25,645 nt of DNA from an uncultured archaeon (GTDB lineage: Archaea > Asgardarchaeota > Heimdallarchaeia > Heimdallarchaeales > Kariarchaeaceae): the NCBI GenBank assembly GCA_964645535.1, contig CAZYCQ010000048.1, positions 1-25,645 on the forward strand. The letters are read 5' to 3'. Shown here in pieces: positions 13,824-18,299 of the stretch. The notes under the pieces were generated by a model. The model saw only the letters and a list, made by a program, of their open reading frames with translations, had not been told where the DNA came from and did no database searches. Within the stretch, counting starts at the first letter, position 1. Each line of letters starts with the position of its first letter. A program made the position numbers and the translations under genes.

Positions 13824-14615
13824 TCATTGACAACACCTTGGATTACTCCAACAGTTGCCGATATGATCCACGAGCAACGGATCATTTGTCAAGAGACCAA
13901 CATCATGGGGATGAGTAATGCTAAGCATGAGTTGACCATCAATTACCATATAGCTGTTTCCCTCCCACATGCTGATTTTTTTCCTGAAATTGGAAAATCC
14001 TTTGATCAAATTCTCAAGATCGAGGAAATCTTCAGGAATGGCAACATCAAGGAATAGTTCAGGACTTGCTCGAGAAAGACCTTCCTTGAATGCTTGCTTT
14101 ATTGTGGAGGATTGAATCCCCAACAAAATAAATATTCGATCTTGTGCAGATGCAATCATTCTTTTTATTTGCCGATTAAGATCTCGACCCTTGTAGATAT
14201 AAGCAACCTGATCCAAAGGAGGAAATTCCGGAGACCATAAATGATCAATCAAATCATTGATTTCTTCTACAATCATCTGTTTTTTCCTGTAATCTTGAAG
14301 GACAAATTCATCCAAGAATTGTTCAATCACCAATGAATTTGTCACCAGATATTCTTTTGGTCTACCAGCAGATGCTTGAATCAGACCCAGTTCAAGAAGT
14401 GAATTCAATGCAGAATAGACCTTGGGATTAGGAACCCCCAAATCCGAACATATCTCTTTTGCGGTTCTACCGTTTGAAGAAGCAAGCAGGTAGGAAAGGA
14501 TTCGGGAGTGATTGATCGATGGAAATACGCCCAAAGCATCCAGTTTTTTGATCAATTCATTCAATTTTATTGAGTTAAGGATGAAATCATTGGTTCCTTG
14601 CAACATCCAATTCAT
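13824..14615 (-). CDS. TrmB-family transcriptional regulator with a C-terminal C-x5-CC motif
   Basis: wHTH TAKEI...LGVP..KVY..L..L.E.GLI.....RPK.Y followed by a TrmB-type effector domain. Ends in CWSNPRCCQ. Alternative start is TTG at about 14564. Confidence 0.88.
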   Translation of the reverse strand: MNWMLQGTNDFILNSIKLNELIKKLDALGVFPSINHSRILSYLLASSNGRTAKEICSDLGVPNPKVYSALNSLLELGLIQASAGRPKEYLVTNSLVIEQFLDEFVLQDYRKKQMIVEEINDLIDHLWSPEFPPLDQVAYIYKGRDLNRQIKRMIASAQDRIFILLGIQSSTIKQAFKEGLSRASPELFLDVAIPEDFLDLENLIKGFSNFRKKISMWEGNSYMVIDGQLMLSITHPHDVGLLTNDPLLVDHIGNCWSNPRCCQ

Positions 14616-14672
14616 TAATGATTAGTATTTGATAAACTATTTCTTCCGTCAAAAGGTAGAAAATGGATAAGT

Positions 14673-15374
14673 TTAGCGTTTCAATCCTGAAAACACGACA
14701 GATTCATATTCAATCAAGTTTCCGGCAGAAGTCTTATATTTTTCAACGCTTTTTACAGAATATGAAATATCATCAAATCCAGCGTCTTGAAGAAAAGAGA
14801 GGTATACCTCCTTAGATACCGCTCCACCGATGCACGCACAGAAATCCTTTTCAGAAAGCTGATCAGTTTTGCCCTTTGTTATCATATCAGCAACAACAAT
14901 GCGTCCTCCTTTTCGGAGAAGGCGATATGCCTCTTTGAAAACAGCAAATTTGTCATCGACCAAATTGATGACACAATTACTCAGAACAACATCTGCGATT
15001 GAATCCTCCAACGGTACCTTCCGAATATCACCTTTTATGAAAGACACGTTTGTATAACCAGAAGCATTTTTTTGTGCCAATTCAATCATTTCATCGAGAA
15101 AGTCAACCCCGATAACCTTGCCATGGGAATCGACTTTTTTAGCAGCAAGTATAGCATCATGACCCGGTCCGGATCCGAGGTCAACAACAACCTGACCTTT
15201 TTCAATTTTGGCCAAATCAACAAAACCGGTGACACATCCAAAGGACGGAGGGAGCATGACATCCCTTGCAGAATCACCACAACAATTAGAGGAGGTTTTT
15301 GGAGATAAATTTGCCAACATTTTCAATGCTTTATCGCCATAGCTTTTTTTGACAGGTTCAGTCAAATCTTTCAT
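14673..15374 (-). CDS. arsM: Arsenite S-adenosylmethionine methyltransferase
   Basis: SAM motif VVDLGSGPG.D, G.VIGVD, DVV.SNCVINL..DK..VF.E..R.L..GGR and CIGGA. Cysteines at the four ArsM positions (NCCG, SFGC, SNCV, CACI). Confidence 0.85.
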   Translation of the reverse strand: MKDLTEPVKKSYGDKALKMLANLSPKTSSNCCGDSARDVMLPPSFGCVTGFVDLAKIEKGQVVVDLGSGPGHDAILAAKKVDSHGKVIGVDFLDEMIELAQKNASGYTNVSFIKGDIRKVPLEDSIADVVLSNCVINLVDDKFAVFKEAYRLLRKGGRIVVADMITKGKTDQLSEKDFCACIGGAVSKEVYLSFLQDAGFDDISYSVKSVEKYKTSAGNLIEYESVVFSGLKR

Positions 15375-15435
15375 GAATTTATGAGGGTAATTGAATAGAA
15401 AAGGAATGCCTTACAAAGTTACGTAGAAAAGTTAT

Positions 15436-16425
15436 CTATACAACTGCGGATGCATCAACTACATTGAAACCGTCTGTTGTGCTCACTACCAAGTTGAAAA
15501 TTTGAGTGTTGGAATAGGTGGGATGGGCAGCAATGGCCAATGCAACCACACCTGCAACATGAGGAGTGGCCATGGAAGTTCCAGACCAGCTTTCATAGTT
15601 GTTTCCAGGCGTGGTTGACAAGACATCAACACCAGGTGCGAATACGTCCTCTCCTCTGTTGGAGAAGTAGGCGATTGTGTTGCTGCTGTCGATTGCACCA
15701 ACCTTGAGGACACCAGGATAAGCAGCAGGATAGCTGGGGGATGATGCACCATCATTACCAGTGGCGGCAACAACAACAACACCGTTGTTCAAGGCGTAAT
15801 TGACTGCGTTTTCGAGTTCAGTAGTGCCAGAAGGACCACCAAGGGACATTGAAATGACATCGGCATCATCAGCAGTCCCGGGAACACCATCAGGACCATT
15901 GGTCGCAGTGATTATCCCGTTTGCGATTGCAGAGTAGGAACCAGAACCCCTATCAGAAAGAACCTTCAAAATGTAGAGGTTGACCTGTGGAGCAACTCCA
16001 AGAACACCTACACTGTTATCCTGTGCAGCAATTGTGCCGGCCACATGCGTACCATGCCCATGTCCGTCCTTGCAAGCAGAATAGCTTGCAGGAGTGCATT
16101 CCTGTCCGGAAATCGCCCGATTGCCCTTATAAAAGCTGTATCCCCAGACAAAGAGTCCTTGAAGGTCTTCGTGATTAAAATCAAGACCAGTGTCAAGGAT
16201 GGCAACATTTACGCCAGATTCATCCACGGCCTGTTGGGCAGTGACTGCGTTCACACGTTCAATACCCCAAGGGATGGTTTGAGGCATGCTTCCACCGCCA
16301 CTTCCAGGCTTTCCCTTGAAAATCGTAGCATAGTGTTCTTCAGCAAGAGCAATTCCGGAAAGGGAAAGCACACTCATGATGAAGACACCAATTGTCAAGA
16401 TCGATAACATTTTTGATCTGTTCAT
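15436..16425 (-). CDS. Secreted S8 subtilisin-like serine protease (Tk-subtilisin/aerolysin-like)
   Basis: Signal peptide, then triad ILDTG / HGTHVAG / SGTSMATPHVAG, oxyanion ATGN and GPDG...DDADVISMSLGG. Confidence 0.96.
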   Translation of the reverse strand: MNRSKMLSILTIGVFIMSVLSLSGIALAEEHYATIFKGKPGSGGGSMPQTIPWGIERVNAVTAQQAVDESGVNVAILDTGLDFNHEDLQGLFVWGYSFYKGNRAISGQECTPASYSACKDGHGHGTHVAGTIAAQDNSVGVLGVAPQVNLYILKVLSDRGSGSYSAIANGIITATNGPDGVPGTADDADVISMSLGGPSGTTELENAVNYALNNGVVVVAATGNDGASSPSYPAAYPGVLKVGAIDSSNTIAYFSNRGEDVFAPGVDVLSTTPGNNYESWSGTSMATPHVAGVVALAIAAHPTYSNTQIFNLVVSTTDGFNVVDASAVV

Positions 16426-16816: not shown

Positions 16817-18121
16817 TCATATCATGGGAAAGGTCTTCGGTGCGTTTTTCGGAACTTCCTTGAAAAGCTTTTTCTGGAATTCATGGTAATCCACCTCAGT
16901 AGAATGCCTCGGAGTTTTTAGGTATTTCTTCAGCGTCTTTTTCCTATCCTTCTCAATCCTTTTCTCGATATTATTTGGCCATTGGTAGTTGCCAACAATA
17001 TAATTTGCCATAATTTGACCTTGAGTATCGGAAAGAGGCCAAATGCATCCCTGCGGCTGAACCAAACCGATAATTCCTAAAGTCGGGAATTTGGGGTGGA
17101 ACATTTTGAGGTAAAGATCAACATAATTCTTCTCACTGAAATCCAATTCGGGATAATCAAAAAAGGGGAAATTGATTTTATAGCCTGTTCCAAAGATTAC
17201 CGCATCATATTCTTCAGAAGAGCCGTCAGTAAAAACCACACTGTTTCCCTCAAATCGTTCAATATTGGGACGAGGATTGATATCCCCATGCCTAATCCGA
17301 TCAAGCAACGAGGAATTGAGGATTGGGTGAGTTTCAAGTAACTTATGATCTGGTTTGGGAAGCCCATACTTTTCATTGGATCCTACCACCATTTTCCAGA
17401 GCAGATAGAACATTCGTCTTCTCATCCATTCAGGCAACCAGCGAATTTTTGCATTCAAAACATCAGGAGGCATTCCAAGAAGAAGTTTGGGAACTACGTA
17501 ATATCCTCTTCTCCAACTTAAACCGGTGAATTTGGCAAAACGAGAGATATCAACAGCAATATCACAGGCAGAGTTTCCACCACCCACCACCAGAACGCGT
17601 TTGTCTTTGAATGGGATATTAGTTCTGTAATAATGGGAGTGCATTGTCTTGCCCGTGAACTCTCCAGGAAAATCAGGATATCTAGGATTCCAATGATGGC
17701 CATTCGCTACAATGAGATAGTCAAATGTTTCCTCTTCACCAGTATCTAGAGAAATAGTCCACGTTAAATCTCCATTCATTACTGCCTTCTTTACAGAGGT
17801 GTTGAATTTAATGAAAGGAGTGACTCCAAAATGATCCGCATAGTTTTGGAAATAAGCTTTCAACAATTCATGTCCAGGATAGTCAGGGTACCAATCAGGC
17901 ATGGGATAATCATGGTATTGAGACAGTTTCTTGGAACTGATGATGTGTGAAGTTTCGTAAACACTTGAATGACTAGGATTGGGAGAATAGACCCAATTGC
18001 CACCTACTTCAGAGTTCTTGTCGTAAACAATGAAATCTGTCAGACCCACCTGAAGAAGGTGCTTCGCAGCGGTAATGCCAGAAGGACCTGCACCTATAAC
18101 ACAAACTCGAGGTTGCTCCAT
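16817..18121 (-). CDS. Class B flavin-containing monooxygenase (FMO)
   Basis: GAGPSG (FAD), GG.W, FMO fingerprint FTGKTMHSHYY, GGGNSA.D (NADPH) and GTGY. ATG 18121 preferred. Confidence 0.95.
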   Translation of the reverse strand: MEQPRVCVIGAGPSGITAAKHLLQVGLTDFIVYDKNSEVGGNWVYSPNPSHSSVYETSHIISSKKLSQYHDYPMPDWYPDYPGHELLKAYFQNYADHFGVTPFIKFNTSVKKAVMNGDLTWTISLDTGEEETFDYLIVANGHHWNPRYPDFPGEFTGKTMHSHYYRTNIPFKDKRVLVVGGGNSACDIAVDISRFAKFTGLSWRRGYYVVPKLLLGMPPDVLNAKIRWLPEWMRRRMFYLLWKMVVGSNEKYGLPKPDHKLLETHPILNSSLLDRIRHGDINPRPNIERFEGNSVVFTDGSSEEYDAVIFGTGYKINFPFFDYPELDFSEKNYVDLYLKMFHPKFPTLGIIGLVQPQGCIWPLSDTQGQIMANYIVGNYQWPNNIEKRIEKDRKKTLKKYLKTPRHSTEVDYHEFQKKLFKEVPKNAPKTFPMI

Positions 18122-18299
18122 AGATGGCTGGACAGTACAGACCATAAAAAGTTTGTTTGGAACCGACCCCATATCATTTCAAACATTCGTAATGGTTCTA
18201 TCAACCAAATACAGAAATTCCCGATGTTGGAAACCATGAGGAACAATCTGGCTCAGAAAGGCAAGAAACGTTTTATTTCAGAAATTGTGGGTAGACAAT

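Follow-up and report, generated by a model that had tools for sequence, protein, structure and literature searches.

ArsR is the only characterised type of regulator responsive to trivalent arsenic, As(III), that is named in PMC11868830. The AfArsR protein of Acidithiobacillus ferrooxidans, a dimeric winged-helix repressor of ars genes that belongs to type 2 of the ArsR/SmtB family, binds As(III) via its C-terminal residues Cys95, Cys96, and Cys102 (PMC11868830), i.e., via a vicinal pair and a third cysteine at a distance of six or seven residues, where the C-terminal helix ends. SpArsR from Shewanella putrefaciens senses the trivalent monomethylated form, MAs(III), selectively with a C-terminal vicinal cysteine pair (PMC11868830). 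TrmB, a regulator known from Pyrococcus furiosus, senses sugars via a C-terminal barrel, and its relative TrmBL2 is a ligand-free chromatin protein (PMC4158304). Here, we describe a TrmB-family regulator with a cysteine-bearing C-terminus, which is encoded next to a gene for an ArsM-like methyltransferase (here arsM) in a 25,645-nucleotide (nt) stretch of DNA from an uncultured Asgard archaeon of the Kariarchaeaceae (assembly GCA_964645535.1, contig CAZYCQ010000048.1, positions 1 to 25,645; this whole stretch is referred to as the window). The sequencing runs listed as containing this DNA are all DNA runs from a single metagenome study of hot springs, which is probably its source, and no RNA run is among them. 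Judged from the sequences and by analogy with ArsR, it is reasonably likely that this protein senses metalloids via thiols and in this way controls the adjacent arsM gene, presumably as a dimeric repressor that would be released by As(III) or MAs(III).

In comparison to AfArsR, the order of the cysteines is mirrored, with C255 followed by C261 and C262. AfArsR has the ArsR/SmtB fold in approximately 120 amino acids, whereas the regulator described here, a predicted As(III) binder, is built like TrmB from 263 amino acids and includes a coiled coil and a domain resembling phospholipase D (PLD-like). As in SpArsR, a vicinal cysteine pair (CC) is present, in this case as a family-wide constant of the TrmB-type regulators. 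SpArsR however uses two ligands, whereas every CC-bearing TrmB-type member has a third cysteine, and the scaffolds differ. With TrmB and TrmBL2 from Pyrococcus furiosus/Thermococcus (3qph, 5bpd) the regulator shares the DNA-binding domain, the recognition tyrosine, the coiled-coil helix, and the N-terminal half of the effector domain, and its length is close to that of TrmBL2 (264 amino acids); the cysteine tail occurs in neither of them, and the sugar barrel of TrmB is absent from the window regulator. CopR of Pyrococcus furiosus is likewise an archaeal helix-turn-helix (HTH) regulator with a C-terminal cysteine-based metal module (TRASH) and is encoded divergently from its target copA, but it is an octamer of the Lrp/AsnC family with a TRASH domain and a copper response (PMC7830388). 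It was also considered as a precedent of TrmB type and rejected as such, since its own authors place it in Lrp/AsnC (PMC7830388).

According to the original prediction, an arsM gene in the window is followed on the same strand by a TrmB-type regulator gene with a cysteine-rich end, and this arrangement was recovered in full. Both open reading frames (ORFs) are located on the minus strand, with the methyltransferase upstream and a gap of 57 nt (14616-14672) between them, and the regulator ends with CWSNPRCCQ, encoded at 13827-13853. The features of the pair are as follows:

14673..15374, minus strand: ArsM-like S-adenosylmethionine (SAM)-dependent methyltransferase, 233 amino acids (Methyltransf_31, NF008823, cysteines aligned with CmArsM)
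13824..14615, minus strand: TrmB-family regulator, 263 amino acids as called (PF01978, family profile, structure model, Foldseek)
14346..14504, minus strand: winged HTH domain of the regulator, residues 38-90, with the invariant Y67 (Pfam TrmB)
14448..14450, minus strand: codon of Cys56 in the second helix of the winged HTH domain (cysteine in 24/37 of the family alignment A3)
13827..13853, minus strand: C-terminal motif CWSNPRCCQ with C255, C261, and C262 (sequence)

The regulator is a genuine TrmB-family protein, in which a winged helix and a coiled coil are followed by the first, PLD-like half of the effector domain. The Pfam model TrmB (PF01978) matches residues 38-90 with 42.3 bits against a cut-off of 25.6 (E 6.8e-11), far above the borderline secondary match to HTH_5 (PF01022; 22.6 bits, cut-off 22). 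From 37 family members the alignment A3 was made, which served as the source of a family profile and of the cysteine column counts given below. The profile matches TrmBL2 with 8.5e-18 and TrmB of P. furiosus with 4.9e-16 over approximately 220 residues, whereby TrmB residues 6-207 are aligned; this range runs from the DNA-binding domain through the coiled coil into the effector domain, of which it includes the first half. Y67 does not vary in A3, and by residue count it corresponds to Tyr50 of P. furiosus TrmB (3qph_A), which recognises DNA (PMC4158304). The AlphaFold2 model of the regulator, with a predicted local distance difference test score of 93, contains the winged HTH domain, a long helix (94-126), an alpha/beta domain, a final helix (246-257), and the NPRCCQ tail. 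Foldseek ranked TrmBL2 and TrmB first (approximately 16% identity), followed by PLD-like folds and a fragment of the TrmB sugar domain (2f5t). In the Pfam search, no match to the TrmB effector-binding domain (PF11495) was obtained for the window regulator itself, whereas relatives match this domain (L075 with 1.2e-10, L038 with 7e-5) or TrmB_EBD_N (four further metagenomic representatives). In the relatives, PF11495 covers only positions 4-126 of the 233-position model. Since it is only this first half that is matched, the sugar-binding barrel is absent from the regulator, as it is in TrmBL2; the protein ends approximately 70-80 residues before the C-terminus of TrmB, and the NCBIfam equivalog models of TrmB and TrmBL1 score approximately 21 bits against cut-offs of 600-650. 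With its 263 amino acids and TrmB architecture, the regulator is not of the compact ArsR/SmtB type (PF01022, approximately 100-130 amino acids). Its true start is probably M4 (ATG at 14604-14606), so that the ORF as called would be three codons too long (9 nt, in 14604-14615), because three close homologs begin with ML at this column and the TATA-like sequence TTTATCAA is located approximately 26 nt upstream.

The regulator has just four cysteines (C56, C255, C261, and C262), each of which falls into a family column enriched in cysteine. In A3, a cysteine is found at the position of C261 in 34/37 members, at C262 in 31/37, at C56 in 24/37, at C255 in 14/37, and in the column of window residue 218 in 18/37, whereby C255 is kept solely within a Heimdall-type subfamily. 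In the AlphaFold2 model, C255 lies inside the last helix and C261/C262 follow directly after it; W256, N258, and P259 around these residues are conserved too. Only three close homologs were found in a collection of 5.8 billion proteins, with 51-63% identity, and C-x5-CC is present in all of them. An exhaustive HMMER search led to 81 representatives, the nearer of which carry [ST]C[WF]xNxxCC and the more distant ones Y[YFW]x[NS]PxCC, i.e., the CC pair only. For the counting of cysteines and neighbouring genes, 120 regulators from genomic loci were aligned to the family hidden Markov model. The CC pair is present in 98 of the 120, and all of these 98 have at least one extra cysteine at position 56, 218, or 255. 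C218 and C255 are mutually exclusive among the 120 aligned regulators, and in 14 CC-bearing regulators that lack both, C56 is the only extra cysteine. The conservation on which the original prediction depended is thus confirmed for the CC pair at large. C-x5-CC, the spacing named in the original prediction, holds for the Heimdall-type subfamily (30-64% identity), but the family at large retains CC plus a third cysteine at one of the three positions. Read from the sequences, the hallmark of the family is the CC pair together with a movable third cysteine, and not C-x5-CC as such. Such a pattern would be expected of a three-thiolate site with a relocated third ligand, in analogy to the As(III) sites that arose independently among ArsR proteins (PMC11868830).

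The linkage of the regulator to arsenic genes recurs among relatives, as had been anticipated, and it tracks the cysteines. An ArsM-like gene, by far the commonest partner of the family, is located within 1.6 kb of 64 of the 98 CC-bearing regulators, usually in divergent orientation, compared with 1 of 9 paralogs without these cysteines; these counts are not phylogenetically independent, and the pairing spans several phyla. The paralog without the cysteines from the archaeon's own genome (contig C11, L107) has no ArsM-like neighbour. Two metagenomic contigs from Logan (L001 and L002), whose regulator is 63% identical, show the order S8 peptidase, methyltransferase, regulator as in the window. 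Within the archaeon's own family, the regulator adjoins an ArsM-like gene in G002, G003, G005, and G009 and, where the contig ends, in G006, mostly in divergent orientation. Another family of this class contributes 12 genomes with a divergent pair of regulator and ArsM-like gene, 60-400 nt apart. Seven further representatives come from unrelated metagenomes, and six of them are divergent from an ArsM-like gene and one from a PF03773 (ArsP_1) permease gene. A species scan with one genome per species yielded 80 loci from Bathyarchaeia, Thermoplasmata/Methanomassiliicoccales, Nitrososphaerota, and Asgard archaea, 50 of which contain an ArsM-like gene within 3 kb; patterns made from four close homologs were too specific in an earlier genome scan and found no relative, whereas broader alignments retrieved the relatives. 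Because the pairing recurs in dozens of species, it is far beyond chance. One of the partners (L095:1075-2937) is a protein of 620 amino acids, in which an ArsM-like domain and a second methyltransferase domain are apparently fused to a C-terminal segment; this segment is rhodanese-like by sequence reading only.

The methyltransferase of the window is a class I SAM methyltransferase with a fold most similar to ArsM, for which methylation of As(III) is predicted from its sequence. It matches Methyltransf_31 of Pfam with 1e-30, the best NCBIfam model is the arsenite methyltransferase NF008823 (195.8 bits, below its cut-off), and the closest PDB sequences are the arsenic methyltransferases 4kw7 and 4fr0 from Cyanidioschyzon (3.7e-27). 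The claim that all four cysteines expected of ArsM are present stands for three of them and in part for the fourth: C47, C134, and C181 align with C72, C174, and C224 of CmArsM (PDB 4fr0; residue count in the HMMER alignment), whereas the CC pair at residues 31-32, although kept among the methyltransferases next to the regulators, is not equated with C44 of CmArsM, after which the alignment begins. The neighbouring methyltransferases of the relatives bear the ArsM cysteine signature as well. In the genome, which is 89% complete, arsM is the sole gene of arsenic type that was found; neither a further ArsM-like gene nor Acr3 was detected in it. The only genome match to ArsB (PF02040; G000 contig C9:52611-53873; L029:1450-2805) was rejected, since a CitMHS transporter fits better (176.8 vs. 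56.7 bits), and it has no regulator beside it. The statement that the window holds no ArsR or other ars gene proved correct, as the only HTH_5 match on the contig is the TrmB-family regulator itself and Pfam scans of the remaining window ORFs revealed none. That the pair is independent of ArsR applies insofar as no ArsR gene is adjacent to it, but 19 HTH_5 matches are present elsewhere in the genome.

The gaps between regulator and target gene of the relatives contain a palindrome with the consensus TTCTACY-N5-9-RGTAGAA, which has perfect 9-nt arms in L099. Its exact core CTAC-N4-12-GTAG occurs in the gap of 11 of the 17 paired loci, and its density in the gaps is approximately 160-fold that of the remaining sequence of these loci. 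The TACT..AGTA core of the palindrome resembles published TrmB sites, which read TACT-N3-AGTA and TACT-N7-8-GAGTA (PMC4158304). In the window, the following operator-like and promoter-like elements are present upstream of the two genes:

15409..15430, minus strand: operator-like box upstream of arsM with the left half TTTTCTAC and the degenerate right half GTAAGG (relatives carry the full CTAC-N-GTAG palindrome at the same position)
15395..15402, minus strand: TATA-like TTTTCTAT, approximately 24 nt upstream of the arsM ATG, putative promoter (sequence)
14640..14663, minus strand: operator-like imperfect palindrome TTTCTACC-N7-GGAAGAAA upstream of the regulator (8-nt arms, one mismatch)
14629..14636, minus strand: TATA-like TTTATCAA, approximately 26 nt upstream of the M4 ATG of the regulator, putative promoter (sequence; present in the orthologous L001 spacer)

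The half-site TTTTCTAC occurs just twice in the 25.6-kb window on either strand, at 15423-15430 and 14656-14663, both times on the gene strand, with 0.86 occurrences expected. L001 has TTTTTTATC at the place of the arsM TATA-like TTTTCTAT. An inverted-repeat finder yielded only trivial 6-mers in both window spacers, and the boxes emerged only by comparison with the relatives.

From the TrmB architecture, the conserved cysteines, the synteny with arsM, and the operator conserved in relatives, we infer the following course of regulation, which includes the identity of the effector, its coordination, and repression rather than activation. A homodimer, as is expected from the homology to TrmB and TrmBL2, would bind the TTCTAC-type boxes, which abut the TATA/TFB-recognition elements in the promoters of arsM and of the regulator gene, and in the bound state it would hold the expression of both genes down. 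As(III), or MAs(III) as produced by ArsM, would then be bound by three thiolates, namely Cys261 and Cys262 from the tail and Cys255 from the end of the last helix, whereby Cys56 in the DNA-binding domain might be a possible thiolate ligand. Metalloid binding would distort the C-terminal helix and the tail and change the hold of the two DNA-binding domains, such that the DNA would be released and arsM would be induced.

Several observations weigh against this model. The methyltransferase is short (233 amino acids), and its 195.8 bits lie below the curated cut-off of 263 for NF008823, of which profile positions 64-237 of 272 are covered. The gene order in the window is co-directional, whereas it is divergent in most relatives, and the operator of the window amounts to one half-site per gene with degenerate partners, the right half being degenerate in the closest relative too. 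Furthermore, CC-bearing regulators without an arsM gene within several kb occur in G004 and G008, both of Heimdall type, as well as in G065 and G334. In the case of G065 (L104; G065:C1:602000-612000), one flank is conserved, and genes that look like dnaJ/dnaK, as judged from N-terminal sequences only, take the place of arsM; no ArsM-like gene was found in this genome, which is 71% complete. It could be argued from the co-directional order and the degenerate operator that regulator and arsM are neighbours by mere coincidence. However, the pair is found again in several phyla together with a conserved operator, and the link goes specifically with cysteine-bearing members, so that coincidence can hardly be regarded as a serious explanation. 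With respect to the direction of control, both boxes of the window are located directly upstream of the TATA-like elements, a position that goes with activation and not with repression in TrmBL1/Tgr (PMC4158304). In several non-Asgard relatives, the palindrome is located downstream of the TATA element, which is the position of a repressor. Thus, the sign of the regulation is uncertain for this locus.

Further points against the model come from the other partners of the family. For the PF03773 permease mentioned above, the nearest NCBIfam models are of the Cu/Zn efflux type and remain below cut-off. In loci from Bathyarchaeia and an uncultured archaeon (L134:1590-2915, L159:1581-2906, and L175), the mercury methylation genes hgcA and hgcB are the divergent partners, with 382-413 bits for hgcA (NF040863, cut-off 275) and 109-117 bits for hgcB (NF040864, cut-off 99), whereby two of the hgcAB-linked regulators look truncated before the CC tail. 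In loci without an arsM partner, the divergent slot is occupied by unannotated cysteine-rich ORFs that look metallothionein-like. These include micro-ORFs of 30-39 codons with 7-9 cysteines in Thermoplasmata/Methanomassiliicoccales (L157:2616-2726, L158:1668-1781, L162:2789-2881, L172:2774-2887, L174:2769-2888, and L178:944-1063) and ORFs of 96-99 codons with repeated SCCG motifs in Nitrososphaerota (L111:2640-2939, L116/L117:2613-2903). In addition, a CMD/AhpD-like protein of approximately 98 amino acids with a CxxC motif is encoded divergently from the regulator in L126:2246-2542, with similar ones in L131, L138, L141, L153, and L185; it matches the AhpD part of the NCBIfam model NF041537 for an ArsM/AhpD fusion selenoprotein. 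With hgcAB, the PF03773 permease, and cysteine-rich peptides among the partners, arsenic may not be the sole or even the main effector, and because of hgcAB and the peptides the regulator may respond to soft metal(loid)s more generally. The regulator could then be a broader sensor for soft metals such as Hg(II), Cd(II), Sb(III), or Cu(I), with the same targets and with arsM as just one output. A three-cysteine site would suit Hg(II) too, and the efflux-type models of the permease as well as the CxxC proteins and micro-ORFs would fit with such a function. We nevertheless consider this unlikely, since no other partner is nearly as common as the ArsM-like genes, and in the window, too, it is arsM that accompanies the regulator. 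Moreover, in Pseudodesulfovibrio mercurii ND132 an arsenic-responsive ArsR-like (PF01022) winged HTH regulator is encoded beside the methylation genes hgcAB (bioRxiv 10.1101/2022.10.17.512643, PMC10349881), and an hgcAB partner is therefore no argument against arsenic. That regulator is a bacterial ArsR protein of PF01022, whereas it is TrmB-type members that stand beside hgcAB in Bathyarchaeia. The candidate regulator of archaeal hgcAB named in PMC10349881 is an AbrB/PrlF-type protein and not TrmB, and the word 'TrmB' has 0 occurrences in that paper. The hgcAB-linked TrmB-type CC regulators are candidate archaeal regulators of mercury methylation.

It might also be that the cysteines are structural, for instance as a Zn or Fe-S site or by packing of the tail, and that the actual ligand, such as SAM, S-adenosylhomocysteine, or a thiol metabolite, is bound in the PLD-like domain. 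This PLD-like half of the effector domain is indeed well folded and conserved, and the conservation of W256, N258, and P259 is what a structural knot would show. However, the third cysteine shifts among three non-homologous positions while CC stays, which is closer to the As(III) sites that ArsR proteins evolved independently (PMC11868830), and the paralogs without the cysteines retain the fold and lose the link to arsM; a purely structural role is therefore improbable. The vicinal cysteines could alternatively form a disulfide and act as a redox switch, by which oxidative or thiol stress and not a metalloid would be sensed. Redox sensing by vicinal cysteines is documented for RexT, a winged HTH protein of the ArsR-SmtB family (PMC8960804), and the CxxC proteins and cysteine-rich peptides among the partners could serve thiol homeostasis. 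Such a switch would leave the dominant link to ArsM-like methyltransferases and hgcAB unexplained, and many of the hosts are strict anaerobes by lineage (Bathyarchaeia, Methanomassiliicoccales), which makes a redox function very improbable.

The pair of arsM and regulator is flanked by genes for an S8 peptidase, an FMO-like monooxygenase, aIF-1A, and a cupredoxin, as assigned by Pfam. The S8 peptidase and FMO-like monooxygenase genes (window 15436-16425 and 16817-18172) are located upstream of arsM, and the same is true for the closest relative (L001:1616-5151). DsrE-like genes lie close to arsM in two unrelated loci, L001 (1616-5151) and L100 (15-1568). In other Asgard lineages (L089:879-1223, L090:2295-2723, L091:712-1122, and L093:1028-1414), arsM stands next to small regulators of the PadR family whose ends bear cysteines in three loci, and in one locus next to an HTH_5 protein of ArsR type that carries CC at its N-terminus. 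Asgard arsM genes thus appear to have recruited several different winged-helix sensors, and the ArsR- and PadR-type regulators fit a non-orthologous replacement of one sensor type by another.

To our knowledge, it is essentially unknown how arsenic methylation is switched on in archaea. In the paper library that was searched in full text, nothing relevant joins TrmB with arsenic, arsenite, or ArsM, and the word 'cysteine' does not occur in the TrmB review PMC4158304. What is new here is a predicted thiol-based, metalloid-responsive winged-helix regulator on a TrmB scaffold instead of ArsR, and the locus probably represents an undescribed archaeal switch for arsenic, or for soft metals, in the place of the usual ArsR, as far as this can be read from sequence data. 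As a more tentative generalisation, for which the chances seem nearly balanced, such TrmB-scaffold metal(loid) sensors might be pan-archaeal and constitute the main archaeal switch for arsenic methylation. They would have an origin independent of ArsR and a shared TTCTAC..GTAGAA operator, with the CC pair and a third cysteine that has moved among the HTH domain, a beta-strand loop, and the last helix, and in some lineages they would also control hgcAB and metallothionein-like micro-proteins.

If the regulator is indeed such a sensor, the locus supplies a defined protein, a defined operator, and a series of point mutants that can be tested. The regulator could also serve as a new chassis for biosensors, and in metagenome-assembled genomes of archaea it could mark regulons that respond to arsenic or mercury. 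It would further mean that the cysteine-triad solution arose on a second, unrelated winged-helix scaffold that was previously tied to sugar sensing, and that this scaffold is widespread in uncultured archaea (Asgard, Bathyarchaeia, Thermoplasmata, and Nitrososphaerota) that are relevant to how arsenic and mercury cycle through sediments, soils, and hot springs.

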